A DNA stretch of 64,000 nucleotides, taken from Aulosira sp. ZfuVER01. GTDB taxonomy: Bacteria; Cyanobacteriota; Cyanobacteriia; Cyanobacteriales; Nostocaceae. Under the pieces are notes generated by a model. It saw nothing but the letters and a program-made list of their open reading frames with translations, made no database searches and had not been told where the DNA came from. Positions 445 to 43,984 of the stretch are shown here, in pieces. A program made the translations under genes and the position numbers. The DNA is taken from contig JAVRCV020000003.1 of the NCBI GenBank assembly GCA_034530615.2, forward strand, positions 1 to 64,000. Reading direction: 5' to 3'. Numbering within the stretch: position 1 is the stretch's first letter; every line of letters begins with the position of its first letter.

Positions 445-2031
445 ATGACTCCCTATTCAAGTTCAGCAAAAAGTTCAGTAAATAATGATTACCAACTAGA
501 ATTAGATTCTCTAGATTGGGAATTACGCATGGCCAAATTAGTTGGCTTAGAAAATGAAGAATTATCTTCTATAAGTGCCGAAATAATAGAAGAATCAGCG
601 ACTTTGTCACCATCGCTTTCTCAACCATCAGAAGTTAAAACTGAACAATCTTTCTCATCTAATCCTTTTGCTAAGTTAGGTTTAGTTGGTACTGCAACTT
701 TAAGTGTAGTTTTGGTTGCTGGTGGGTTTTTGACTCAACTTATGAGTAGCGGCAATCAAAAGCCAAAAAAGAAGAATATTTCCCCCGAAATTAAATCGCC
801 AGTAGTAGATGAATCTGTACCGCAAGAGCTAGAAATAGAAACTCTCAAAACCAAATTAGCTCTAACTGAACAAGCAGAAGCTGTGAAACTAGCACAACAA
901 CAGCTAAGAAATACACAGATTAAACAACTTTCAATAGCCTCAAAACCTACCTCAAAAAGTAACGCGCCGAGGATAGTTACAGTTGAGCGTATTGTTGATG
1001 TACCCCATCCGCCACAAACAACTGCCTACTCTCACCCTGTACCACAACCTCAAATGGTAGCTATCAAGCCGGATATTCCACCAGCAATTAACGTCACTCC
1101 TAAACCTAAACTAGATCCATATCAGATGTGGTCAAATTTAGCTAAGTTAGGTAGCTACGGTCAGGTGAGTGGTAACAACCAACCTCCTGAGAATGTCACT
1201 ACTTCTGAAACCGCCAGCAATCCCAACACAAGTAATCCTAATATAGAGGCACAGGCAACCAACCCTCAGCCTGACTCAATACCGACACCAGAAACACCAA
1301 CACCAGAAACTCTGACTGCAAGCAAAATAGACAAGCCAACTCTGATGGCTAATAAAGAAGCAAAGCAGAGTGCAAAATCTATCGCCGTAGGAACTAGCGT
1401 TAAAGCTGTGTTGGCAACAGCTGTATTTGGCGAAACTGCTAATTCTTCTGCTAATAATGGTAACGAGGGTCAAAAAAATACATTTGTAGTCCGATTAAAA
1501 GAACCTTTGAAAGGTGTGGATGGAAACGTTACCATACCTGCGGGTACTGAATTATTGGTAGAAATTCGTTCTCTTTCCGAACAAGGTTTACTACAGTTAG
1601 ATGTGGTGAAAGCGATCGCAAAAGATCGAGACGGAATTACTGAAACTAGCTTACCGCCAAATGCATTCATGATTCGCGGTTCCGAAGGTAAACCTTTGAT
1701 AGCACAACAATATCCCAATCGGGGGTCATCTCTTGCCAGCATGGATATGGGACTCTTTGTTTTGGGAGGTCTAGGTAAAGCCGCAGAGTTATTTAATCGT
1801 AGTGAATCTCAAGTTGTGACTACCAATGCTGGCGGTACTGTGGTTAGCAATACTAACCCCCAACGCAACATCTTGGCAGGAGTTTTAGAAGGTGGGATGA
1901 ATACCATAGTGCCGCAAATTTCCCAACGCAATCAACAGGCAATGTCCGATATGATGCAGCGAACCAACGTCTGGTTTTTACCAGCCGGCACAGAAGTCGA
2001 AATCTATGTCAATCAAGCAATGGAATTGTAA
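445..2031 (+). CDS. TrbI/VirB10-family protein
   Basis: One N-terminal TM segment (LGLVGTATLSVVLVAGGFL), a coiled coil, a Pro-rich linker and a C-terminal VirB10-like domain (GTSVKAVLATAVFG, IPAGTELLVEI, VWFLPAGTEVEIYVNQ). Confidence 0.8.
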   Translation: MTPYSSSAKSSVNNDYQLELDSLDWELRMAKLVGLENEELSSISAEIIEESATLSPSLSQPSEVKTEQSFSSNPFAKLGLVGTATLSVVLVAGGFLTQLMSSGNQKPKKKNISPEIKSPVVDESVPQELEIETLKTKLALTEQAEAVKLAQQQLRNTQIKQLSIASKPTSKSNAPRIVTVERIVDVPHPPQTTAYSHPVPQPQMVAIKPDIPPAINVTPKPKLDPYQMWSNLAKLGSYGQVSGNNQPPENVTTSETASNPNTSNPNIEAQATNPQPDSIPTPETPTPETLTASKIDKPTLMANKEAKQSAKSIAVGTSVKAVLATAVFGETANSSANNGNEGQKNTFVVRLKEPLKGVDGNVTIPAGTELLVEIRSLSEQGLLQLDVVKAIAKDRDGITETSLPPNAFMIRGSEGKPLIAQQYPNRGSSLASMDMGLFVLGGLGKAAELFNRSESQVVTTNAGGTVVSNTNPQRNILAGVLEGGMNTIVPQISQRNQQAMSDMMQRTNVWFLPAGTEVEIYVNQAMEL

Positions 2032-21710: not shown

Positions 21711-22982
21711 ATGCACTCAAAACATAAGAGTAGCAAGGATTCTATCAAATTAGCAGATATACGTGTCGGTTCAGATAAAGGTAGTTTAAGGCTACAGTTC
21801 AGCACTCGCATTAGCCAGAAGTTCTACAGCAAGCGACAAGCTTATAAAGGACTGGGGAGGAGAGACACCCCAGAAAATCTGCAATGGGCAAATCAAATCG
21901 CAGCACAGATACAAGCTGATATCGATCGCACAGATGGTAGCTCATTCGATCCAACACTCGCTAAATATCTAGAAATTAAGCAACTCACAACAATTAACCA
22001 GTTCAGCAATCCTCCACAACCACCTAAATTAGGACAATTATGGCATGAGTTTGTTGATTGGAAATTGCAAACAAAGCAGATCCAAAAAAGTACCTATAAA
22101 AAAAATTTTATTGTTTACCACAATCTAATTAAAGAATTTTTAGACTTAGAATTAAATCTTGATACTGCCAATAGCTTAATTCAGCACTTATTACTAAAGC
22201 AAAGTAACTTACAACAAATAAAAAAGCTATTTTGTTTGCTGAGTAATATGTGTCAACGGGCTATTAGTAATCAGCAATTAACGGCAGATTATTTTATAGA
22301 AATCAAAAAAACTTACAATATACCCAAAAAGTCGCAAAAAATCTCAGAATTAGAAGATTATAGAGCTTATAACATCCAAGAAAGAGATTTGATCGTTGAA
22401 TCATTCCGTAATTCTGAGCAAGCCTCTATCAGACATGGTGCTGATTTAATTGAGTTTCTGTTTCTCACTGGTTGCAGACATGGTGAAGTATTCGCTTTGA
22501 AGTGGAAAAATATCCAACTAGAGGAGGGTTGGATATTTTTTAAAGAATCATTTGATAGTAGTGCTGGTATTACTAAAAAATCAAATAATAATACTGAAAG
22601 ACTATTTAAAATTCAAGGGATGAATAGGTTAGTTAATTTATTAACAAGATTATATGCAAACGGCAAAAAGGAAAATGAATTAGTTTTTAGAACTATCGCT
22701 GGCAAGCAATATTCAAGTAATACCCTTACAGATATCTGGACTGGCAATACTGTTGAGGTCAGAGGTAAAGTCTACCACTATCCTGGGGTAGTAAAGAAAT
22801 TAGCCCAAGAGAGAAAACTAGAATATTTAAAACCCTATTCTACACGTCACACTTTTATCAGCATTCAAGCTAATCATGGAGTTGACTTAAAACTACTTGC
22901 TAATAGCTGTGGTAATAGCGTAGAGCATATTATTAAACATTACTTGCATTTTGATAAGAATGCCAGGTTGAAAGATATCTAA
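21711..22982 (+). CDS. tyrosine recombinase/phage-type integrase with N-terminal arm-binding domain
   Basis: LFLTGCRHGEVFALKW, KPYSTRHTF and GNSVEHIIKHY; N-terminal SDKGSLRLQF...FDPTLAKY. Confidence 0.9.
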   Translation: MHSKHKSSKDSIKLADIRVGSDKGSLRLQFSTRISQKFYSKRQAYKGLGRRDTPENLQWANQIAAQIQADIDRTDGSSFDPTLAKYLEIKQLTTINQFSNPPQPPKLGQLWHEFVDWKLQTKQIQKSTYKKNFIVYHNLIKEFLDLELNLDTANSLIQHLLLKQSNLQQIKKLFCLLSNMCQRAISNQQLTADYFIEIKKTYNIPKKSQKISELEDYRAYNIQERDLIVESFRNSEQASIRHGADLIEFLFLTGCRHGEVFALKWKNIQLEEGWIFFKESFDSSAGITKKSNNNTERLFKIQGMNRLVNLLTRLYANGKKENELVFRTIAGKQYSSNTLTDIWTGNTVEVRGKVYHYPGVVKKLAQERKLEYLKPYSTRHTFISIQANHGVDLKLLANSCGNSVEHIIKHYLHFDKNARLKDI

Positions 22983-27960: not shown

Positions 27961-28202
27961 AATGCAGTTGTTGATGGTTGGTTTGACTTGAAATTACAAA
28001 GAACAGATGCACAAATTCAAAGTGCATTGAACCATCTGAATGATTTGCTCTGCAAGTATGGGATGACACAAACACAGCTAATTGGTAAGGTTGCTTGCTT
28101 GATGGCTGCTTTCTATTACCCCATCCTCCTCAATGATGAGGGGGATAATTTTTTGGTTTATTTTTCTTAGAAGACCAGTTATATCATGTCTTCTTGAGGA
28201 GT

Positions 28203-29213
28203 TCATATTGAACTAGCAGTCTCCCTAACAGCTTCTCGCAGCCTTTCCACATCGCGCATCGGTGGTGCACCAAACATTCGCTTATATTCCCGGTTGAAGT
28301 GCGAAGCATCGTCATAACCCACACGGTAGGCAGCACTGGTAGCGTCAAGGTTTTCCCCCAGCAGCAGCCGACGAGCCTCCTGGAGCCGCAGTTGCTTCTG
28401 GAACTGCAAAGGACTCATTGCAGTGACAGACTTGAAGTGATGATGGAAGCCTGAGACACTCATTCCTAGCTCTCGGGCAATACTTTCAATCCGCAGCGGC
28501 TGATTAAAGTCTTTACGAAGTCGCTCAACGGCAAGAGCGATGTGGTGGGTGTAGCCACTTAGAACTGCAATATGACGGAGCCGACTACCTTGCGCTCCCA
28601 TCAGGAGTCGGTAAATGATTTCCCGTGCGAGCAGTGGCATCAGAACCCGAGCTTCGCTGGGAGAGTCCAGAAGCCGAACAAGCCTGACTACAGCATCTAG
28701 CAGCGGCGCATCCAATGGACTCACATCGATCGCTTTAACATTGGCACCCCTTTGGAGTGAGGGATAGCCCGCCTCAACCATGACTGAACCGACCAGGGTA
28801 GGGTCGAGATCGAGGCGAAGACTAAGAAACGGTTGCTCCTTGGACGCTTGGAGAATTTGGCTGATAATTGGCAGTTCGACTGTAGCCAGCAGATAATGCA
28901 TTGGATCGTACTGATAGCGATCGCTGCCCAGAAGAACTTCTTTGCTGCCCTGAGCAATTACACAAAAGGCAGGTACAGAGACATCATGAACGCATTCCCC
29001 AGGTGAGGAGGTGCGTTTAAAGTGCAAACCTTTGAGCGGCTCAATTGCCCCATCATGACGAATAGCCTGTGCAATCCGCTCTTTCAGTTCCTCTCTGTTG
29101 GCTTGCGTTCTGTCTGTCTCGCGCTTTGCCTGCGAGTCGTTCATTAAATCCATATCAGACTTTTCAATTGTTTTGACAGCGTTCATTTCTAAGTTTGCAG
29201 GATCGTACAACAA
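28203..29213 (-). CDS. AraC-family regulator (YqhC-like)
   Basis: CVIAQGSK, REIIYRLL, HFKSVTAMSPLQFQKQLRLQEARRLL and VGYDDASHFNREYKRMFG. The start may be further downstream. Confidence 0.93.
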   Translation of the reverse strand: MLYDPANLEMNAVKTIEKSDMDLMNDSQAKRETDRTQANREELKERIAQAIRHDGAIEPLKGLHFKRTSSPGECVHDVSVPAFCVIAQGSKEVLLGSDRYQYDPMHYLLATVELPIISQILQASKEQPFLSLRLDLDPTLVGSVMVEAGYPSLQRGANVKAIDVSPLDAPLLDAVVRLVRLLDSPSEARVLMPLLAREIIYRLLMGAQGSRLRHIAVLSGYTHHIALAVERLRKDFNQPLRIESIARELGMSVSGFHHHFKSVTAMSPLQFQKQLRLQEARRLLLGENLDATSAAYRVGYDDASHFNREYKRMFGAPPMRDVERLREAVRETASSI

Positions 29214-29492
29214 TCTTAGACGATTGTTCTATTGCTTGCCTTTCAGGATTCATAGAATGAAGCTAAAGCAATGAAAAATGATTCCGGCTGCTTGTAAGCA
29301 TTCTAGATTTTTATTCAAGAGAAAACTCAGCTTTGATGGGGCAAGAAATTCGTCTACTGACAACCAAAATGGCGTCAAGGCTACCTTGCTTCTTAAAAAA
29401 TTCCCATCCCTACTGATAGAGGAAGCGATAAGTACTCAATCTCTACGATTGGGCTAGCCACCGAAATAGCCTCAAGTGAAGGAATTAAGCAA

Positions 29493-29903
29493 ATGGACAT
29501 CAAAAGAAGTGGCTCACAGCCTTCTGCCAAAGGGCCGACCGAGTATTTTATCGGCACTGTCCGCATTGACCCCCTGTTCGAGGCACACGATCCAGCACGC
29601 ACATCTGGTGCTAGTGTCACATTCGAGCTTGGTGCTAGGACAGCATGGCACACCCACCCGTTGGGACAGACCCTGATCGTGACGGTTGGCTGCGGCCTTG
29701 CACAACGCTGGGGCGGAGCGATCGAGCAAATTCGACCCGGAGACGTAATCTGGTTCGCGCCGGGTGAGAAGCATTGGCACGGTGCGACCCCAACCACAGC
29801 GATGACGCACATCGCCATTCAGGAATGGCTTGACGGCAAGCCTGTGGGCTGGCTGGAACAGGTCAGTGATGAGCAATACCAGACATCAAACGTAAACCAA
29901 TAG
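29493..29903 (+). CDS. cupin domain protein
   Basis: [16 protein letters not shown] and [12 protein letters not shown]-like aagga upstream. Confidence 0.9.
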
Positions 29904-29914
29904 AGCATCTATTT

Positions 29915-30964
29915 ATGTACAACACGAAAGCTTATGCCGCAGCCAGTGCAACATCACCCCTGGCCTCTACCCAAATCAAGCGGCGCGATCTAAATGAACA
30001 CGACGTTCAGATCGAAATCCTCTTCTGTGGTATCTGTCACTCCGATCTCCATTCAGTGCGGAACGAGTGGGGCGGCGCGGTCTATCCGATGGTTCCCGGT
30101 CATGAGATCGTGGGACGTGTCACGGAGGTTGGCTCGGCAGTTACGAAGTACAAACCCGGCGATCTGGCGGCGATCGGCTGTATGGTCGATTCGGATTTGA
30201 CCTGCCCCCATTGCAAGGCTGGACTTGAGCAGTTTTGCCAAAATGTAATCCTCACCTACAACTCCCCAGACAAGCACCTGGGAGGAGTCACTTATGGGGG
30301 CTACTCCAATAGCATTGTTGCCGATGAACGTTTCGTTCTGCGCGTCCCAGACAATCTCGACCTGGCTGGAGTTGCACCACTCCTTTGCGCTGGGATTACA
30401 ACTTATTCACCCTTGCGCCACTGGGGAGTTACTGAGGGCAAAAAGGTTGGTGTGGTTGGTCTTGGTGGGCTGGGGCACATGGGCGTGAAGTTCGCCCATG
30501 CGTTTGGTGCTCACGTCGTTGCCTTCACCACCTCGCCTGACAAGACGGAAGACGCGCTTCGCCTCGGTGCTGATGAAGTGGTCGTCTCCCGCAATGCCGA
30601 CGAAATGCAGAAGCACGCGGGCAGCTTCGATTTCATCCTTGACACCGTCTCCGCCAAGCACGACATCAATGCCTACCTCAACCTGCTCCGCCTCGATGGC
30701 AACATCACCCTGGTCGGCGCACCCGAAAAGCCCCTGGATGTTGCAGCATTTAGCCTGATTATGGCTCGCCGCAGTCTCTCCGGCTCTAGCATCGGTGGCA
30801 TCCCCGAAACCCAGGAGATGCTTGACTTTTGCGGCGAACACAACATCACTGCCGATGTCGAAGTTATTCCCATCCAGAAGGTCAATGAAGCTTACGATCG
30901 CCTGCTCAAATCCGATGTAAAGTACCGCTTCGTGATTGATATGGCGTCCCTGAAATCAGAATAA
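29915..30964 (+). CDS. Zn-dependent NAD(P)H alcohol/aldehyde dehydrogenase (YahK/CAD-like)
   Basis: CGICHSD, GHE, APLLCAGITTYSPL, GLGGLGHMG and DVKYRFVID. Confidence 0.95.
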   Translation: MYNTKAYAAASATSPLASTQIKRRDLNEHDVQIEILFCGICHSDLHSVRNEWGGAVYPMVPGHEIVGRVTEVGSAVTKYKPGDLAAIGCMVDSDLTCPHCKAGLEQFCQNVILTYNSPDKHLGGVTYGGYSNSIVADERFVLRVPDNLDLAGVAPLLCAGITTYSPLRHWGVTEGKKVGVVGLGGLGHMGVKFAHAFGAHVVAFTTSPDKTEDALRLGADEVVVSRNADEMQKHAGSFDFILDTVSAKHDINAYLNLLRLDGNITLVGAPEKPLDVAAFSLIMARRSLSGSSIGGIPETQEMLDFCGEHNITADVEVIPIQKVNEAYDRLLKSDVKYRFVIDMASLKSE

Positions 30965-31037
30965 CCGAGCTTTCACCTCGGCTGATTGGCAAATCCGCTC
31001 TTGCAGAACTCAGAAGTGACTCAACAAAAAGAAGAAG

Positions 31038-31784
31038 ATGATGATTAAAGACAAAGTTGTGATTATTACCGGCGCCTCATCAGGGATTGGTGAAGCCAGT
31101 GCGAAATTGCTTGCAAGCAAAGGCGCTAAAGTCGTATTGGGCGCGCGACGCGATCGCCAATTGAAACAACTGGTTGATGAAATTCAAAAAGCTGGCGGAC
31201 AAGCAGCCTATCAAGTGATGGATGTGGTTAACCCATCTGATAACGCCCAGATCGTCAAGCTTGCCAAGGAAACATTTGGAGGTGTCGATGTTATTTTCTT
31301 GAACGCTGGCATCATGCCCACTTCTCCACTTTCTGCACTGAAAACTGATGAATGGAATCAAACGGTTGATATCAATATCAAGGGTGTACTAAATGGTATC
31401 GCTGCTGTGTTGCCAACGTTTGTTAGCCAAAAGTCTGGGCACGCGATCGCTACGTCATCGGTTGCTGGATTAAAAGCTTATCCAGGTGGTGCGATCTATG
31501 GTGGGACGAAATGGTTTGTACGCGATTTCATGGAAGTTCTACGCATGGAGTCTGCTCAAGAGGGGACTAACATTCGGACTGCGACAATTTATCCTGCTGC
31601 AATTAACACTGAGTTGTTGAATCAGATTACCCACCAAGATGCGGCTGAAAAAATGACAAAGTTGTATCAGCAATATGGCATCTCACCCGATCGAGTAGCC
31701 AATGTTGTGGCGTTTGCGATTGACCAGCCAGAAGACACAAACGTGAACGAATTTACGATTGGCCCAACCACGCAGCCTTGGTGA
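31038..31784 (+). CDS. SDR family oxidoreductase
   Basis: TGASSGIG, NAG and YxxxK (YGGTK). Confidence 0.93.
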   Translation: MMIKDKVVIITGASSGIGEASAKLLASKGAKVVLGARRDRQLKQLVDEIQKAGGQAAYQVMDVVNPSDNAQIVKLAKETFGGVDVIFLNAGIMPTSPLSALKTDEWNQTVDINIKGVLNGIAAVLPTFVSQKSGHAIATSSVAGLKAYPGGAIYGGTKWFVRDFMEVLRMESAQEGTNIRTATIYPAAINTELLNQITHQDAAEKMTKLYQQYGISPDRVANVVAFAIDQPEDTNVNEFTIGPTTQPW

Positions 31785-31873
31785 TGGCGGTTAGGCTAAG
31801 TGCGATCGCATCTCAATGGGATAATCATGCAAAAGCACAAACTTGACAACAGCAACGACTACCCGCAAAGGAG

Positions 31874-33569
<1,696 letters not shown>

Positions 33570-33580
33570 GGCAATATTAG

Positions 33581-34600
<1,020 letters not shown>

Positions 34601-34669
34601 ATAGCGAAAAATATGTTCTCTCAGATACTGAAGAAGCTCGCGCGGGCACACTGCATGAGGCTGTAAAAG

Positions 34670-37294
34670 TCAAGATGATTGCATCGGATTAACTGGGTTA
34701 ATTAAACCCTGTGCCGTACCAAATAGATTGATCGGATTGCGACCATCGGTAATTAAAACACTTTGTAAACCCAAAGCTTGCAATAATCTTGCCTGCATTT
34801 CTGGCCCGGCTTGTGCCATTGCTATCAAGGTTTCTGCGCCAATCGCTGCTACTTTCTCGCGGAACTCTGCACTGGTAATTTCCGCCATTCGCTGTGCTTT
34901 TTCTATCTCTAAACCAACAAGTGCTTGTTGGTGGGCGAGTTCTGCCATTTGTCGGGCGCGTAATTGCGCTAATTCTGCTTCGGCGCGAATTCTGGCGGCT
35001 TCTGCTTCTTGTTGTGCCAAATTTACTGCTAATTCGCCTTGAATTCTGGCGGCTTCTGCTTTCGCTCTAGCTTCAGCTGTAGCATGACCTGTAGCTTCAA
35101 TTGCGGCGTTTTCTGCTTCTAATTCCAGCAGGTTTTTCCGCTCACTTGCGGCTGCACTTTTATCGACAATTGCTTGCCTTTCTAATCTAGCTTTTGCTTC
35201 TTGTTCGATCCGTTCCGCATCATGACGAGCTGCGGCTTCTTGGGCATCGGTGGTAATTTGAATGGCAATTTGCACCGACTTTTGTAGGCTGTCTAAGGTA
35301 CGTTCGTCAACAGGCTCAACGGATTGAATATCAACATTAAATATCACCAAATTATTGGTTCTAAACCGGAATTCTTCGCCAACGTGTCCCGCTTCATCAA
35401 TACCAAAGACGGCGGTGCGAATAATTCGGGCAGAATTGCGGTGAAATTCATCAAATTTGACACCTGCTACTGCACCACGCACACGAGATGCGATCGCTTT
35501 ACAAGCTGTATCGACAAAATCCGGTACTTGAAACAGTTTGGCAGCAGCTTGTTCGTCGTGACGCTCAACGTCAAAATACCAGTTATAGGACAATCGCAGT
35601 TGGAGGCGTGCATGATCGGAAGTTTCCACGGCAAATAAATCCGTCATAAAATCTGGCCCTAGTAATAACGCCAGTGACTTAATGCGATGCATTTGTTTGG
35701 GTACACCACCTGACAAACTCAACACGGTAAAGGCTTCATCAGGCCCCAACATTACCAAATCCGGGCCAAAAACAGTGCGCGCAGTTCTTTCTTTATAATC
35801 GTGGATCTGAACTGCGGCATTTTGGGGAACGTGAAACACAACCGCCCTGGTGCGATCGCGTTTTTTGGCTGGAGCTGAATCTGTTTGCACCTGGTGATGC
35901 TGTCCGCGATCGGAAATGGGGTCAAGTTTGTGTGCTAGCAGTTCTTCTACGACGGTTGGTACTTCTTTTTGCCAAAGTTCTTCATAGGGGGTGAGCATAT
36001 AGGCTTGAGGGCCACTCACTAGCTTAAGTTCGCCTGTTTGAATATCTCGGACGTAAATTCCTTCATTCTTATCCAAGGGGATAGCTTGGCGTTTCTCAAC
36101 TACTTCCACTTCCACACGCGGAATGTAATCTCTGGGGCCAGTAATCATCCACATATCACCAGGTTGGCGTTGAATCCGATTTGCGCCTTCACCTTCTTCC
36201 AAAGCTTCTTTAGCGCGGAGTAACAATGCTTCTTGCTCGCCTAAAACATAAACTTTTTCGATCCCCTTTTCTAAAGATTCTCCAGGATGCAGGAAAAATG
36301 AAATTCTACCTTGACGTACCTCACGCATTCCTAATTGTGGTTTACCTGCATCATCAATTGGGTTAACAACAATACACCATTCTCTGTCACCCAAAATCGT
36401 AATTTTAACTTCTCCTACCACCACTTCATAAACATCAGGAATGTGGATTTCTGTGTCTTCAAAAGTTACTAACCATTCATCTCCAGCTTTGCGCTGACGA
36501 CCAAAAACATCGTTAAATGTGCGTTGCGCCCGCAGATGTAAGGCTGTCTTTTCTGTTAACACGTAGGCATTAATCATGCCCACCACTTCTTCATCAACCC
36601 CAGGTAAATAAGCTCCTTCTTCTCTTACCAACCACTCTTCACCAGATCTACGCTGATTACCCAGGCGATCGGTGCAATTTTGCCGCGCTAATAAGCGTAA
36701 AGCTTGGTTAGGCTTAATGATTTGCGCCGTAACTCTTTCGATGACTTCTACTTCTACACGGGGAATATAAGTTCCAGGGCCTTCAAATAGCCACTCATCT
36801 CCCGCCAAACGATTGATATTTCTAGTTTGAATTTGTCCGTCAACTGTAACGCTAATCGTATCAGTGAAATCTCGAAGCGATCGCAGACGTAAAGCTTGAT
36901 TAGTCTCAACCACTTGCAGGCGCTTAATTTCTCCCTCTAACTCTTCGCCAGGATACAGGGGAAATGGTTCTTGGGCAAAACGGATTTCTTCGTCACCGTA
37001 CCGTAGTTTTACCTGACCGAAGTCATCAGTGATGGGTTGATTTTCCGCGTTACGTTGCACTGGATTTGCAACTATACAATAATGGCGTGGTGGAACCACT
37101 ATCATAGGCTCAGGTTTTAATATCAACCGTTCGTGGTCGCGCAGAGTAATGGTTTGAGGCCCAACTTCCAATCGGGTAACACCAGTATTGTTGTCTAAAA
37201 CATGAATAAATTGCTGGGGTTTTAGGCGAATAACACCACTAGAAGTTCCCGGAGCATCGCTTTTAGTTTCAATTTTACGTTCGGTTGTATTCAT
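34670..37294 (-). CDS. mvp: major vault protein (MVP) homologue, full length
   Basis: N-terminal vault repeats (HVLDNNTGVTRLEVGP, VPPRHYCIVANPV, PFPLYPGE, AGDEWLFEGPGTYIP, AIPLDKNEGIYVRD), shoulder domain (LLLGPDFMTD..VETSDHARLQLRLSYNWYF, ACKAIASRVRGAVA), cap helix (VDIQSVEPVDERTLDSLQKSVQIAIQITT) and cap end (AGPEMQARLLQALGL..LITDGRNPINLF). Confidence 0.95.
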   Translation of the reverse strand: MNTTERKIETKSDAPGTSSGVIRLKPQQFIHVLDNNTGVTRLEVGPQTITLRDHERLILKPEPMIVVPPRHYCIVANPVQRNAENQPITDDFGQVKLRYGDEEIRFAQEPFPLYPGEELEGEIKRLQVVETNQALRLRSLRDFTDTISVTVDGQIQTRNINRLAGDEWLFEGPGTYIPRVEVEVIERVTAQIIKPNQALRLLARQNCTDRLGNQRRSGEEWLVREEGAYLPGVDEEVVGMINAYVLTEKTALHLRAQRTFNDVFGRQRKAGDEWLVTFEDTEIHIPDVYEVVVGEVKITILGDREWCIVVNPIDDAGKPQLGMREVRQGRISFFLHPGESLEKGIEKVYVLGEQEALLLRAKEALEEGEGANRIQRQPGDMWMITGPRDYIPRVEVEVVEKRQAIPLDKNEGIYVRDIQTGELKLVSGPQAYMLTPYEELWQKEVPTVVEELLAHKLDPISDRGQHHQVQTDSAPAKKRDRTRAVVFHVPQNAAVQIHDYKERTARTVFGPDLVMLGPDEAFTVLSLSGGVPKQMHRIKSLALLLGPDFMTDLFAVETSDHARLQLRLSYNWYFDVERHDEQAAAKLFQVPDFVDTACKAIASRVRGAVAGVKFDEFHRNSARIIRTAVFGIDEAGHVGEEFRFRTNNLVIFNVDIQSVEPVDERTLDSLQKSVQIAIQITTDAQEAAARHDAERIEQEAKARLERQAIVDKSAAASERKNLLELEAENAAIEATGHATAEARAKAEAARIQGELAVNLAQQEAEAARIRAEAELAQLRARQMAELAHQQALVGLEIEKAQRMAEITSAEFREKVAAIGAETLIAMAQAGPEMQARLLQALGLQSVLITDGRNPINLFGTAQGLINPVNPMQSS

Positions 37295-37589
37295 AAATTA
37301 ATTAATGTTTTTAAAGGTTAAAATTTTTGTATATAGAAATATAACTTCAAATAATTATTTTGACTCTGCGCTCCTGCAACCTTACTCTAATGGGAAATTT
37401 TTGCTCAATCCTAACTTATTTGTATAATAATGTCTCGATATTTTGAATTTAATTAAAGTAGATTTATGTAAATATTTGTGATTGCGATCGCGCAATCGGG
37501 GAAGATCGAGGAAGAAACAGCATAACAATCCCTGCATCAATCTAGTAGATGATTGTGCTACAGAGTAACGCAAAATTATCGGTTTTTAT

Positions 37590-37927
37590 CCGTAAGTAAA
37601 TTGTTTGATAGCCTGCCATACCTAATTGGTGTCAACTTAACGTGAAAGGCTTTGTTACTAAAGATATTTGATCCCCCTAAATCCCCCTTAAAAAGGGGGA
37701 CTTTGATTCTTTTCCCCCCTTTTTTAAGGGGGGGTTAGGGGGGATAGAAAGTTTATGGTGCTAAGAGAGATAACCTCAAAGACTTACGCTGTATACATCT
37801 AGGCTTAAGTTGACACCAATGGCCATACCTGTGCCACTAATAAGTGTTGATGACAAGCGTTTAAAACATGGCTAAATATCCTCAGCGTTTTGAGAATTTT
37901 CCGCAGTTATGAGAATGGGATATTCAT
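37590..37927 (-). pseudogene. decayed 5' remnant of the gene translationally coupled to dpdE (possibly dpdF)
   Basis: The ATG overlaps the dpdE stop (TGATG at 37929-37925). With the MITE removed it reads MNIPFS*LRKILKTLRIFSHVLNACHQHLLVAQVWQAIKQFTYG*. The dpdF identity is inferred from typical operon order. Confidence 0.4.
37624..37821. mobile_element. MITE family B, 198 bp, 9-bp target duplication
   Basis: TIRs aattggtgtcaacttaa / ttaagttgacaccaatg, flanked by gccatacct at 37615-37623 and 37822-37830. Confidence 0.9.
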
Positions 37928-40900
37928 CAATCATCCTCCTCAGACTTAGCTGGATGTTGCCCAGAAACGATAATAAAACCAACAGAATCTAGGCGAATAG
38001 TAGGATTACGAATCCCATCAATAATTACCTGATTTAATGCCGTTTCGTTATTAAGTTCTTGCTCCAGTACCGGAGCGGAAAATCGCTCTTGGTTAGTAAG
38101 TCGGTTGAAACGCAGGCGTAATTGGTCTAGTCTCTTACCTAATTTTTGTTCAGCACGGGTGGCGCTGTTTTCACATAATCCAATAAATTCGGGACGCTGA
38201 CTGAGTAATTCCAAAGATGTGCGATGCGCCTGATAGCAAAATTCTGACCAATTGCTAGACTCAATAAAGTTATCAAGAATAGATAAACGACTTTTGGCTA
38301 AGTTGTAATCTCGGAATTTACCCCCTTTGCCTTTATAAGGACGGTGCAGAATGTTTAAAAGTGTTTCATCTTCAACAGCACACATTGGTTCATTTCGTGC
38401 ATCAATAAATACACTTTCTACAATTGGCGGGAATAAACCATCGACCAGTCTTTGCAAAATTTTAGATTTGGGATTGTTTCCTTGGTAATTTGTTAAATTG
38501 GTTTCAATAATGTAATTAAATCGGAAACCATACCATTCTTCACCTTCTCCTGCGTTCCAAGTTTCTTCAACTCGCCACATCGCAAAAGCTTTACCCCGGT
38601 CATCCCAATGGATATAAGATGATAATGCTTCTACAAATTTTTCACCAATACGGTAGAGTTTTGCATCAGGTTGTTGATTGGCTACCTCACGGTTAAAAGT
38701 CCCAAATTCTTCTAAAACATCTGCAAAATAACTACTCAAATCATCTGCTGGAATTAATGTATTTTCGGTAGGTTTATAACGCTTAAGTGTCGAGAAATTA
38801 GGATTAGTGATGGTTTTAAAGTTCAATGCCTGACAAATCCAATTTTCAGTTATTTTTTGAATTTCTTGATGACGGGCATCATAATCATCTAAAACTTGAA
38901 AATATTGGGTAGCACTTTCATCCAAGGCATCTATTTCATCTAAGGCGTTTTGTTCGCTAATTTTTACTTGTTCCTGTTCAATTTCTTGGGGAATTATTTC
39001 GATACTTTCCAAAATTCCCTTTGCACCAGATTTAAACAGGATTTCTGCTAATACTGGTAATTTTTCCTCAACATAAAACTGGAGACTAGCAATGGATTGC
39101 TTAAAGATATTAAACCCTTCTTTTAATAAGCGATACCAGGCATCATGGAGACTATCCGGTAAGTCTACGCCAGCAAATACTGTTAACTCAACGTTCAATG
39201 AACGACCAATCCGGTCTATTCTACCAATTCTGTGTTCTATACGATTTGGCGACCAAGGCAGGTCAAAATAGATCATGTTGTTGATAAATTGTAAGTTACG
39301 TCCTTCTTCGCCGGAAGAATCGCAAACTAAAATAAAGCATTTGGGGTCTTGTTTAAATTGATTTAAGTTCTTCTCTACTTGAGAGGGAGTTTGTCCAACT
39401 TGATGGCTGACAACAGTCCCTTCACCAAAACGATCGCTCAAGTAGCGGACAATTTCGGCGCAAGTTTGCACAAAGCTGGTAAATACAACAATTTTTGGCC
39501 AACTGTCTCCCGGGATCGGTCTTTTAATCCGTTGTTGAACCTCTGCAAGCAATTTCGGGAGGTTGAATTTCAAGGATTGTAATTTTAAAGGTTCGCAGAG
39601 TTGGTAAAGTATGACTGTCTTGAGTAATTCCAGGCGATCGCCATCCTCTGAAGGCTGTTCGATAATTCGCAGCAAGCTTTGCAAAATCTCTGCTTCTCCA
39701 GCAAATTTAGGAGTTTCAGTGAGGATGCGAAGGCTATCAGCGCCAAATTCCCGAATTAATTCCGCAGGCGAGACACTCTTTAAACGTGCTTGAATTACTT
39801 GTGTAAAAATACCCAACCAAGTACCAGAAGCACGGAAGAACAAGAGAAAAATGTGGTGATATTGTTTCTCATCAGGAGCCGCATTACGCCACGCCTCAAT
39901 TAATTCGTGAATGTCAGGCGATCGCTCGTCTAAATCGTACTCGGCTCTAGGTGTAATATTCCGGTCAAAAATTACATCTTCTACAGAAGCACGACGATTG
40001 CGAAGCATCCTTCTGTGAAGTCTGTAGGTATCGCTAATATGGGTACGAATTGCCCTGACAATTTCAACGGTATCGTCAGCCTTTGCTTGTAAACTGTTTT
40101 CTAGATTGTCTGCCAATTTCAGTAAATACTCATCTTCAGCAAACAGATTACGGAGATGCTGGAGATTAGTTTTCAGGACGGAGAGGTTTGCGCCTTCTTG
40201 AAATGACAGCAGAATTCGACCAATATCTTGGCGTTTGACTACCCGATCGCGAAAACCTGCTAAGTCATCAAGTTGATAAGTTTTTGGGTCAAGCAGATGC
40301 AGCATTGCGAGAAAATCTTGCTCGTGGTTGAGAACCGGGGTAGCCGAAAGTAGAAGCAGGCGATCGCTTTTATGGGCAAGATGTTTGCAACTCTCAAAAC
40401 GCTGGCGCATTGCTGCATCGCTAGAGGTCGCCATTGCTGCAATGTGGTGTGCTTCATCTAAAATTAGCAAGCCAATCTTCGCTTTTGGGTTGATTTTATG
40501 AAGATTCTCAACCGCAAGCACTGCTAGCCGTTTGGGAAAGTGGGAGATGTAAAACTTATTTTCTAATTCCTGCTGCCATTGTTGAAGTAAATATTGCGGA
40601 ACTAGCACTACCACATATCCAGAAGGTTCATCCAATAAATATTGACGAACAATCGTACCAGCTTCGATGGTTTTTCCTAGTCCAACTTCATCCGCCAGTA
40701 GATAGCGTTGAATCGGGTCTTCGAGTACACGACGGACAACTTCAACTTGATGTGGATAAAGCTTAATATTAGCGGAAATTAATCCCGTCATTCCCCGACT
40801 GACAGCCCGTTGTTCAATTAAGCATTTAACAAAAGCAAAGCGCCTATCGTGGAAGTAGGGGGTTTCTTGCCCCTTCATTGCCAGCGTCTCAATGGGGTCT

Positions 40901-41232
40901 GGTTGAGGTAAACTACAACGCACGTATATTTGTTGTTCGCTGACTGCGATCGTCTTTTTATCAGGTAAATCAACGAGATACTGATAAAGTTCCTCATCCC
41001 ACTCGTAAATTCTGCCAATCAGCCATGCTTCTTGACTTTCCAGGCAAATATAGCATCGAGTTTGACAATCCAGTTTGAAGCGATATAGCGAACTTAAAGG
41101 TAAACTTTTTTCTATACGTTTTCCAACTGAGCAAAAATACTCAACTATTGCCTGAGTATCAGATATCTTAATTACCTTCCCTACGCCCAAGCTGTTATTT
41201 CGGGAACGTACCAACGAACCAATTTTTATCAT
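37927..41232 (-). CDS. dpdE: SNF2/RapA-like helicase, DpdE-type
   Basis: LLADEVGLGKTIEAG, LILDEAHH, LLLSATP, GEEGRNLQ and PWSPNRIEHRIGRIDRIG; 1101 aa with N-terminal GVGKV...VEYF domain. The SNF2 call is firm; the dpdE subfamily call is by recognition. Confidence 0.75.
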   Translation of the reverse strand: MIKIGSLVRSRNNSLGVGKVIKISDTQAIVEYFCSVGKRIEKSLPLSSLYRFKLDCQTRCYICLESQEAWLIGRIYEWDEELYQYLVDLPDKKTIAVSEQQIYVRCSLPQPDPIETLAMKGQETPYFHDRRFAFVKCLIEQRAVSRGMTGLISANIKLYPHQVEVVRRVLEDPIQRYLLADEVGLGKTIEAGTIVRQYLLDEPSGYVVVLVPQYLLQQWQQELENKFYISHFPKRLAVLAVENLHKINPKAKIGLLILDEAHHIAAMATSSDAAMRQRFESCKHLAHKSDRLLLLSATPVLNHEQDFLAMLHLLDPKTYQLDDLAGFRDRVVKRQDIGRILLSFQEGANLSVLKTNLQHLRNLFAEDEYLLKLADNLENSLQAKADDTVEIVRAIRTHISDTYRLHRRMLRNRRASVEDVIFDRNITPRAEYDLDERSPDIHELIEAWRNAAPDEKQYHHIFLLFFRASGTWLGIFTQVIQARLKSVSPAELIREFGADSLRILTETPKFAGEAEILQSLLRIIEQPSEDGDRLELLKTVILYQLCEPLKLQSLKFNLPKLLAEVQQRIKRPIPGDSWPKIVVFTSFVQTCAEIVRYLSDRFGEGTVVSHQVGQTPSQVEKNLNQFKQDPKCFILVCDSSGEEGRNLQFINNMIYFDLPWSPNRIEHRIGRIDRIGRSLNVELTVFAGVDLPDSLHDAWYRLLKEGFNIFKQSIASLQFYVEEKLPVLAEILFKSGAKGILESIEIIPQEIEQEQVKISEQNALDEIDALDESATQYFQVLDDYDARHQEIQKITENWICQALNFKTITNPNFSTLKRYKPTENTLIPADDLSSYFADVLEEFGTFNREVANQQPDAKLYRIGEKFVEALSSYIHWDDRGKAFAMWRVEETWNAGEGEEWYGFRFNYIIETNLTNYQGNNPKSKILQRLVDGLFPPIVESVFIDARNEPMCAVEDETLLNILHRPYKGKGGKFRDYNLAKSRLSILDNFIESSNWSEFCYQAHRTSLELLSQRPEFIGLCENSATRAEQKLGKRLDQLRLRFNRLTNQERFSAPVLEQELNNETALNQVIIDGIRNPTIRLDSVGFIIVSGQHPAKSEEDD

Positions 41233-41745
41233 GCTCTAAATCCACGAAATAGGTTAGCATTAAGCTTTTCATAGCACCCATATAGCCTACTGTATCCGCG
41301 TGCTATTCGCTTTTTACAAGATAGCTTCTTTCACATAGAGAGACAGTTAACGCGAAGCGCTGCATAAGCTATGCTGAGGCTATCTAATACCTCCAGGCGT
41401 TCTACCACTTTAGTTAAAAGTGAATCATAAACTAAGTTGTCAGCTTGTAATTTCCAATTTGCTACTTTTTGCAGCTTGGTCTGTAAGAAAGCAATTTGCA
41501 TCACTATTAATTTACCAGTAGTACACCCAAAGGAAAATAATTATATATTTATATGCTTCCCTTAGACAAGAAAACTCGCGCCTGCGATTTATTTCTCTAC
41601 ACACAAAAATCAGTAAAAATCCAGTATAAATAACAACTACATTAAAACTTCCTGGGAACCATTCCTGTTGCCAAACTTACTGCCATATTTTTCATTCCAC
41701 CACAACCAACCAGTAGAATCTTGACGTTGGACTCTTGACTATTAC

Positions 41746-42261
41746 CTATTCTGCCTTCTTTAATTCACTATCACTATTAACTAATATTTTACTCATTTTA
41801 GTAACTGGAACAATTATCCCTTTTCTTAATTGATGCGGCGCTCTTTTGATAAAAGTAAAACCCAGGTGTGAATAAAAGCCTTCAGCATAAAGGCTCGCAG
41901 TTGTAATTACTTTATCTATACCTTGCTCGCTGGCTTGATTGCAAAAATGTTTCACTAAAACTCGCCCGATTCCTTTTCTTTGGTATTTGGGATGCACATA
42001 TAAAGCTATTAGTTCATCGACAATATAACTAGCAAATCCCGCAACTATATCATTTTCAACAGCAACCCAGAAATGGTCTGCTTTCATACTCTTCATGATA
42101 TTTGAGCCATCAGGCTTGTCACGGTAATTTCGCCAAGCTAACAGTTCTTTGTGAGAATAGAAAGTTGCTGGTAGTGCTTTTATGGCAGCAATATGAATTG
42201 CACTAATATCCCATGCATCTGTTTCTTGTGCAGGTCGAAGAACGATTTCGTTAGCGCTCAT
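41746..42261 (-). CDS. GNAT-family N-acetyltransferase
   Basis: LRPAQETD, LYVHPKYQRKGIGR and ASLYAEGFYSHLGF. Confidence 0.92.
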   Translation of the reverse strand: MSANEIVLRPAQETDAWDISAIHIAAIKALPATFYSHKELLAWRNYRDKPDGSNIMKSMKADHFWVAVENDIVAGFASYIVDELIALYVHPKYQRKGIGRVLVKHFCNQASEQGIDKVITTASLYAEGFYSHLGFTFIKRAPHQLRKGIIVPVTKMSKILVNSDSELKKAE

Positions 42262-43852: not shown

Positions 43853-43984
43853 CGGGCAGTTTGACGCCGCTTCAAGCCGACGGCAGTCCGCACAACGGGG
43901 GGAACCCCCGCAAGCGGCTGCCTCGGAAACCCGTCCAACGCATTGGCTTCTCAAGTCGGCAAAGCCGCCTACGCAACTGCCCTC
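43853..43984. repeat. GC-rich composite dispersed repeat (nested SDR/MITE-like)
   Basis: Bounded by gggcagtt...aactgccc with internal hairpins such as gggggaacccccgc; non-coding and lying between the two antiporters. Confidence 0.6.

Follow-up and report, generated by a model that had tools for sequence, protein, structure and literature searches.

A complete and solitary major vault protein gene in a Nostocales cyanobacterium, a candidate for stand-alone vault assembly

We analysed a stretch of 64,000 nucleotides from Aulosira sp. ZfuVER01 (contig JAVRCV020000003.1, positions 1 to 64,000; hereafter the window), which carries a gene for the major vault protein (MVP). MVP alone self-assembles into a shell of 78 subunits, the vault. 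Few particles in eukaryotic cells are as large as vaults, whose function remains unsettled after four decades. An earlier note, made from the letters of this DNA, had described an intact open reading frame (ORF) of 874 residues at 34670..37294 as a full-length MVP, without naming a strand. Both boundaries were confirmed in the ORF list, and the gene was found to lie on the minus strand with an ATG start; translation of the plus strand over 34670..37294 gave stops only. The gene and the parts of its product, called P0001, are listed here.

34670..37294, minus strand: major vault protein gene, product P0001, 874 aa (ORF list, Pfam, rat MVP alignment, AlphaFold2, Foldseek, dN/dS)
P0001 residues 1-19: N-terminal tail, disordered
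P0001 residues ~20-545: nine vault repeats
P0001 residues 546-663: SPFH-like shoulder
P0001 residues 664-818: cap helix
P0001 residues 819-874: cap end

Sequence, fold and residence of the MVP gene

The domain order that the earlier note had recognised was also obtained by profile search. All five Pfam families of MVP exceeded their curated cut-offs, in the order seen in eukaryotic MVP. Vault (PF01505) matched four stretches of P0001 (227 bits, 1.4e-68) and Vault_2 (PF17794, 129.8 bits) two, Vault_3 (PF17796) and Vault_4 (PF17795) scored 64 and 115 bits, respectively, and MVP_shoulder (PF11978) covered residues 546-663 with its full profile, positions 1-118 (174.7 bits, 8.2e-52). When compared with the sequences of the Protein Data Bank (PDB), P0001 aligned in one colinear stretch, residues 17-866 to residues 3-850 of rat MVP (7pkz_A, E=2.1e-301), in which the cap region (664-866) paired with rat residues 648-850; rabbit and human MVP scored similarly.

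An AlphaFold2 monomer model of P0001, built on an alignment of 40 rows, had a mean confidence score (pLDDT) of 82. It contained nine beta repeats (20-545), then the shoulder, and a helix of ~155 residues (664-818) that consisted of helices 664-732 and 736-818 with a short break at 733-735. In a Foldseek search of the PDB with this model, ranks 1-12 were all solved vaults, with those of rabbit, human and rat at the top, at 52-56% identity and with a best E of 5e-87 (9z4w). Flotillin, HflK/C, prohibitin and stomatin followed, over the shoulder and helix, with E values from 2e-6 to 3e-4. P0001 is a true and complete orthologue of eukaryotic MVP.

Solved eukaryotic MVPs (rat, human and rabbit; PDB 7PKZ, 4V60/4HL8, 9BW5/9BW6/9MXJ and 9Z4W) belong to the same length class (861-893 aa, compared with 874) and share the domain order of P0001. 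They differ from P0001 in that the latter has ~16 extra N-terminal residues with the motif NTTERKxExKxE, conserved only in cyanobacteria, and, relative to rat MVP, carries 11 inserted residues in repeat 3 and lacks 10 residues after the shoulder. The tail motif was observed in most cyanobacterial MVPs and was not present in the copies from Thiotrichaceae or Chloroflexota. In solved vaults such a tail would point into the lumen at the waist.

Sites for HIP1 (GCGATCGC) were counted across the window, with the expectation taken from shuffled sequence, and 65 were found compared to 0.48 expected. Three of them are inside the MVP gene, at 35490, 35852 and 36877, the positions that the earlier note had given; since the window holds 65 sites, three per 2.6-kb gene equals the background of ~1 per kb. 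The G+C content of the gene at third codon positions (GC3) was 0.347, and an index similar to the codon adaptation index, with the remaining genes of the window as reference, was 0.732; the host ranges, taken from window genes outside 28-41 kb, were 0.25-0.52 and 0.66-0.77, respectively. On either side, the locus is colinear with that of Calothrix sp. NIES-2100, which has a nearly complete chromosome of 9.9 Mb, and with that of Nostoc sp. T09, and the MVPs of these strains are 93% and 94% identical to P0001, respectively. Contamination, against which the earlier note had argued from HIP1, is contradicted by the host-like HIP1 density, GC3 and codon usage and by synteny with two named relatives. 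The long residence that it suggested was borne out in part: the codon usage of the gene matches that of the host in full, but in the family MVP was found in a single genus only, in four of its 15 genomes. Contigs from three DNA sequencing runs spanned the whole gene with zero differences, but the runs may themselves be the source of the assembly and are then no independent check on it.

Pairwise ratios of nonsynonymous to synonymous substitution (dN/dS) ranged from 0.049 to 0.108 in the 12 unsaturated pairs among 19 computed, dS being saturated in the other seven. The ORF was unbroken in all 47 full-length bacterial copies. Mean identity of these copies to P0001 was 74-85% per domain and roughly even, with the nine N-terminal repeats 77-80% conserved compared to 85% for the shoulder. 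The MVP gene is resident and under purifying selection.

Residues of the assembly joint and the nucleotide pocket

Residues that join the two halves of the human vault, and those of its pocket for NAD+ or ADP-ribose, were taken from the accessible part of PMC12280208 and mapped by hand onto P0001 through the rat MVP alignment. Residue counts were made over 47 bacterial and 41 eukaryote-like sequences. The label 'eukaryote-like' is assumed for most of the latter: seven of the 20 representatives looked up carry names, all of them eukaryotes (Anaeramoeba, a sponge, a ciliate, Intoshia twice, a diplonemid and Trypanosoma). The positions are as follows.

Half-to-half joint, human R9: R23 in P0001, 47/47 bacterial
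Half-to-half joint, human N22: N36 in P0001, 47/47 bacterial
Half-to-half joint, human D39: D53 in P0001, 46/47 bacterial
Half-to-half joint, human R42: R56 in P0001, 47/47 bacterial
Half-to-half joint, human I36: T50 in P0001, 47/47 bacterial
Pocket, human R437: R463, identical, 44/47 bacterial
Pocket, human K506: K533, identical, 47/47 bacterial
Pocket, human H509: H536, identical
Pocket, human L517: L544, identical
Pocket, human D521: D548, identical, 47/47 bacterial
Pocket, human F522: F549, identical, 47/47 bacterial
Pocket, human W545: W572, identical, 47/47 bacterial
Pocket, human P565: P591, identical, 47/47 bacterial
Pocket, human K573: K599, identical, 47/47 bacterial
Pocket, human R504: V531, differs
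Pocket, human R507: Q534, differs
Pocket, human P508: M535, differs
Pocket, human R511: I538, differs, I538 in 46/47 bacterial

The eukaryotic joint residues R9, N22, D39 and R42 are kept in P0001, and conservation at the joint positions is higher among bacteria than among the eukaryote-like sequences, as would be expected if the two halves must still pair. At the position of I36, threonine is the most frequent residue in the eukaryote-like set. P0001 has the same residue as human MVP at nine of the 13 pocket positions. The keyhole loop, R-P-K-R-P in human MVP and K-P-K-R-P in most bacterial copies, is less basic in P0001 than in eukaryotic MVP. Among the contacts that repeats 3-5 of MVP make to PARP4-MINT, D214, which takes part in a salt bridge, is replaced by G239, while Q164, R169 and Q172 correspond to T189, K194 and Q197, respectively. 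The change of D214 is in line with the finding of no PARP4, in a search whose control was silent.

A solitary gene: neighbours, partners and descent

The earlier note had seen no TROVE- or PARP-like gene in the window, which held for the 44 ORFs scanned, and had proposed that the bacterial vault stands alone. We clustered 803 ORFs, from 60 related loci and the window, all against all. MVP itself was the sole widely common family, present in 61/61 loci including the window. The second cluster (18 loci) was the response-regulator/histidine-kinase superfamily, chained through receiver domains and varying in position and strand, and the third (seven loci) contained pentapeptide and RTX-like repeat proteins. 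No neighbour family was common beyond close kin in the 60 loci, and MVP is a solitary gene without an operon partner.

The source genome (8.03 Mb in 83 contigs, 99.99% complete) holds a single MVP copy. Neither a TEP1-type TROVE protein nor DUF4062, the TIR-like NADase domain of TEP1, was found in this genome, the control for DUF4062 being positive in two genomes. Searches of the same genome for a PARP domain and for vault RNA (RF00006) gave no match, with controls that were positive nowhere. The view of a stand-alone gene was thus upheld, both by the 60 loci and by a genome without a TEP1-type partner, DUF4062 or a second MVP.

The single TROVE protein of the genome is of the Ro60/Rsr type. 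It is encoded on contig C15 (L002:484-2088, minus strand), has 534 residues with TROVE and Ro60 vWA domains, scores 328 bits against NCBIfam Rsr (below the cut-off of 900 bits) and lacks DUF4062, NACHT and WD40. A tRNA-like element of 122 nt (L002:2334-2455, minus strand) lies ~250 nt upstream of rsr on the same strand, an arrangement that we take to be the one known for bacterial Rsr and its YrlA-type Y RNA. Of 401 sampled genomes from the phylum, 48 had TROVE and 13 had the MVP shoulder, and TROVE was present in 7/13 MVP-positive compared to 41/388 MVP-negative genomes. Co-occurrence was rejected as a sign of partnership, being confounded by kinship. Rsr was not counted as a partner, because 22 of the 46 sampled genomes of the host's own family have TROVE without MVP and TROVE is missing from six of the 13 MVP-positive genomes.

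Within the host's own family, MVP was found in 4/389 genomes, all of its own genus (4/15), and in 0/374 genomes of 67 other genera. The 13 MVP-positive genomes of the phylum sample comprised four with a protein of the type described here (own included; E ~1e-52 to 1e-55) and nine, all from one distant family (f35), with a divergent protein that was 804-828 aa long in the five examined and in which Pfam detects the shoulder and one repeat only. A collection of species genomes gave 60 loci with MVPs 67-94% identical, most of them from non-heterocystous filamentous cyanobacteria (Moorena, Microcoleus, Oscillatoria, Symploca, Okeania, Aerosakkonema, Microseira and others), together with four from Thiotrichaceae, which are large sulfur bacteria (Thiomargarita and Ca. 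Parabeggiatoa), and four from Chloroflexota. Among the matches listed, P0001 is 74-94% identical to 120 homologues. The Thiotrichaceae and Chloroflexota loci are without HIP1 sites, except for one site in L063, which argues that they are not mis-binned cyanobacterial DNA. One MVP, assigned to Actinomycetota bacterium MAG69 (L022), is 82% identical, nests in the cyanobacterial clade and lies on 22.6 kb with 14 HIP1 sites; this is most likely a cyanobacterial contig in the wrong bin.

Both in a FastTree tree of 95 rows and in an IQ-TREE tree of 36 rows (LG+C20), all these bacterial MVPs formed one clade (support 100) with short branches. The Thiotrichaceae and Chloroflexota MVPs were separate subclades of it, and the trio that includes the window was nested among Coleofasciculaceae- and Oscillatoriales-type sequences. 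The phylogeny against eukaryotic MVPs, as proposed in the earlier note, resolved the bacterial clade but not its place, since rooting with f35 as the outgroup left it in a polytomy with the eukaryote-like lineages. Rows that appeared basal in FastTree were fast-evolving Intoshia sequences. Transfer from a eukaryote has been considered for the cyanobacterial MVPs (Daly et al. 2013, PMC3762200, accessible part), and transfer to eukaryotes has been proposed (Sokolskyi 2019, bioRxiv 10.1101/872010); a polytomy and few named representatives do not allow the direction to be decided. Within the phylum, the nested trio and the count of 4/389 indicate lateral acquisition, and MVP is an accessory gene in this genus, probably acquired from other filamentous cyanobacteria.

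The divergent f35 proteins (L067-L072) resemble P0001 in having the shoulder and a Vault_3 repeat and in being encoded by single genes. They differ in showing two to three Pfam families and a branch of 3.7 substitutions, and some score as Band_7; P0001 is not of this type. Divergent MVP-like types of Myxococcota and Bacteroidota are known from the literature, and f35 was grouped with them here. In three f35 genomes (L067, L068 and L072), the MVP-like gene is followed divergently by the same run of small genes, first one for a protein of 325-354 aa without assignment and then three size-matched genes per genome, in which Pfam, run on L067 only, detected a TPP-enzyme C-terminal domain, a POR-like domain and DUF4381. 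Loci of the type found in the window lack this conserved neighbourhood.

Two spacers flank the MVP gene of the window.

37295..37926, minus strand: 632-bp spacer 5' of MVP, the expected promoter location (sequence)
34601..34669, no strand: 69-bp spacer from the MVP stop to the stop of a convergent aldo-keto reductase gene (ORF list)

No match was obtained in a sigma-70-like promoter scan of 37295..37926 and no terminator-like hairpin in a scan of 34601..34669, nothing near the gene exceeding shuffles, and an Rfam scan of the 64-kb window gave no family at gathering score. A multi-copy short repeat (~37629-37806), with C and G runs around TTAAAAA palindromes, lies in the upstream spacer, and its depth in the three DNA runs was ~10x that of its neighbours. 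Contig ends with differing loose ends were seen at 37629-37822 in all three runs, and one contig omits 156 bases at the repeat (37647 to 37804). The repeat looks like a multi-copy miniature element.

Compared to the loci of Calothrix sp. NIES-2100 and Nostoc sp. T09, the window has two insertions, one on each side of the MVP gene. The insertion at 37440-41787 holds the gene for a 1101-aa SNF2-type helicase (37927-41232, minus strand), directly upstream of MVP, which matched the NCBIfam DpdE equivalog at 1145 bits (cut-off 500) and PADLOC DpdE at 779 bits. DpdE is part of a 7-deazaguanine DNA-modification/restriction (Dpd) system, and no further dpd-like gene was found beside the helicase gene among the scanned neighbours. 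Because DpdE is missing from the loci of both syntenic relatives, its gene was taken to be an insertion. The insertion at 27980-34665 (6.7 kb), also missing from both relatives, encodes an AraC regulator, a cupin, a Zn-dependent alcohol dehydrogenase, a short-chain dehydrogenase, a TMEM175-type K+ channel and two aldo-keto reductases. With a GC of 0.47-0.56, GC3 of 0.43-0.67 and a codon index of 0.57-0.69, this island is compositionally foreign, yet it is rich in HIP1 (~10 sites); its source was probably a higher-GC cyanobacterium.

Other features of the window include an 80-nt dispersed repeat (~43870-43949) between two Na+/H+ exchanger genes, with copies 93-96% identical on at least four other contigs of a genome of the same genus (G163) and many partial ones. 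A phage-integrase-family gene (21711-22982, plus strand, GC 0.34) and a gene for a TrbI-like conjugation protein (445-2031, plus strand) lie 12 kb and 33 kb, respectively, from the MVP gene, and no link to it was seen for either. G163 is without MVP; its two flanks of the locus are on different short contigs, which precluded a comparison with an empty site, and the sequence that adjoins its ABC-permease flank bears no relation to the window.

Vault assembly and its alternatives

The full colinearity of P0001 with solved vaults, together with the invariance of its joint residues, suggests a shell-forming role as the best reading. We consider it likely, with a probability of about 70%, that the protein self-assembles into a stand-alone hollow vault shell in the cytoplasm. 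Monomers would pack laterally via the shoulder and the cap helix into a half-barrel, and two half-barrels would join via their N-terminal repeats, forming a shell that would dispense with TEP1, PARP4 and vault RNA, the minor components of eukaryotic vaults. An adenine-nucleotide (NAD+/ADP-ribose) pocket as in human vaults is probably retained at the inner shoulder, and the gene would have entered this Nostocales genus by the transfer proposed above. Mammalian MVP alone yields vault-like particles in E. coli (PMC9778704, accessible part).

Several observations weigh against this interpretation. The monomer model has a predicted TM-score (pTM) of 0.49, with a low-confidence cap end (pLDDT 34-57). 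The hydrophobic residue I36 of the human joint is T50 in P0001, and F6 is G20. Of the four changed pocket positions, R511 is one of two residues that bridge the diphosphate in human vaults, according to the accessible part of PMC12280208, and the other three (V531, Q534 and M535) make up a deviant keyhole loop that P0001 has together with its two closest kin; given these four changes, nucleotide binding may differ or be missing. No RNA run with the MVP gene was found among the sequencing runs listed, one possible RNA run (X11) giving a single 173-nt contig at depth 3, which is uninformative on expression. Moreover, eukaryotic vaults probably assemble co-translationally on polyribosomes, a route that may have no equivalent in cyanobacteria. 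Vault assembly on polyribosomes is also alluded to in PMC12786146 (accessible part).

The alternative that survives best is that P0001 forms no closed cage, and is instead a membrane-associated or open scaffold of the SPFH type (a TolA-like 'colicin uptake protein') or a ring or dome like those of flotillin or HflK/C. Most cyanobacterial homologues are named 'colicin uptake protein' by NCBI. The shoulder is SPFH-like, Foldseek also retrieved flotillin, HflK/C, prohibitin and stomatin at E ~1e-6 to 1e-4, and SPFH formers (these four and QmcA) have the same shoulder and helix fold and the same lateral packing of helices. However, they are membrane-anchored single domes without vault repeats, whereas P0001 has nine repeats, a joint for the pairing of halves and no hydrophobic or membrane segment (maximum 19-residue Kyte-Doolittle mean, 1.28). 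Vault repeats play no part in SPFH domes, and those of P0001 are conserved to about the same degree as its shoulder. The residues of the half-to-half joint are invariant, and no family of NCBIfam or PADLOC matches P0001. The likeness to TolA is limited to the Ala/Glu/Lys-rich helix (PMC3762200, accessible part; 10.1101/872010); TolA has an N-terminal membrane anchor and a C-terminal domain III, but P0001 has no such anchor, and no TolA family was found among Pfam hits with E<=0.01 or in NCBIfam. An SPFH-type scaffold appears unlikely to us.

A role as a ribonucleoprotein that packages Rsr and a tRNA-like Y RNA, an echo of TEP1 and vault RNA, could be suggested by the Rsr gene on C15 with its tRNA-like element and by the higher frequency of TROVE in MVP-positive genomes. 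We find this improbable: the enrichment is confounded by kinship, TROVE occurs without MVP and MVP without TROVE in the genomes counted above, mvp and rsr are on different contigs, and the TROVE protein is Ro60-like and has none of the DUF4062, NACHT and WD40 domains of TEP1. Finally, a functionless relic left by transfer from a eukaryote, or an artefact of assembly or contamination, is scarcely credible as an explanation of the gene and, as far as sequence can tell, already refuted: MVP is a eukaryotic hallmark, contamination or eukaryote transfer was considered when the first three sequences from cyanobacteria were described (Daly et al. 2013, PMC3762200, accessible part), and contigs break at a repeat 335 bp upstream of the gene, but dN/dS is 0.05-0.11 across the clade with the ORF intact in every full-length copy, codon usage and HIP1 are host-like, a single contig of one run (32000-37654) bridges the downstream junction of the gene, and Calothrix sp. 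NIES-2100 has the same locus in its nearly complete chromosome.

Knowledge of this family dates back to 2013, and the copy described here is not a discovery. The novelty implied by the earlier note could not be maintained, since cyanobacterial MVPs, the mis-naming that they share, their predicted vault-forming fold and docking, and the question of transfer are in print (PMC3762200, accessible part; 10.1101/872010). Its remark that MVP-like genes had been noted sporadically in bacteria was correct in that bacterial MVPs are known, but understated, as published analyses of cyanobacterial MVPs go back to 2013. The published proteins, from Moorena/Lyngbya (F4Y3B4), Oscillatoria acuminata (K9TKX8) and Microcoleus sp. 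PCC 7113 (K9WB38), belong to the same clade as P0001, that of Moorena producens 3L (L040) being 78% identical, and bear the same 'colicin uptake protein' mis-naming. They are Oscillatoriales-type cases, whereas the present host belongs to a genus of the heterocyst-forming order Nostocales, in which the gene is rare. MVPs have also been reported from phages (bioRxiv 10.1101/2023.11.10.566534, accessible part), and prokaryotes are still stated in many papers to lack vaults, for example in the accessible part of PMC9778704. A literature search, with most subscription journals outside its coverage, found no experiment on any bacterial MVP. What the present analysis adds is the rarity of the gene in the family (4/389), the tight clade that spans three phyla, the solitary gene, the search of its genome in which neither a TEP1-type TROVE protein nor DUF4062 was found, and the invariance of the joint and of most pocket residues in 47 copies.

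A bacterial MVP that is >50% identical to human MVP, under strong purifying selection and apparently free of the eukaryotic accessory proteins is the simplest system in which to address the role of the bare shell, the shoulder nucleotide pocket as a conserved function, and the direction in which the gene crossed between domains. The context is one of culturable Nostocales, the close relatives being named strains, and the presence of the gene in four of the 15 genomes of the genus provides a natural contrast of presence and absence, useful for a knockout or comparative study. A wider reading, which we hold as possible but doubtful, is that MVP-only vaults occur in filamentous bacteria of three phyla and bind NAD+/ADP-ribose-type nucleotides at the inner shoulder, the cage being ancestral and TEP1, PARP4 and vault RNA later eukaryotic additions. 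If true, this would provide a genetically tractable, partner-free vault system, and would keep a bacterial origin of the vault possible, because the tree is compatible with a bacterial clade either inside or beside the eukaryotes.

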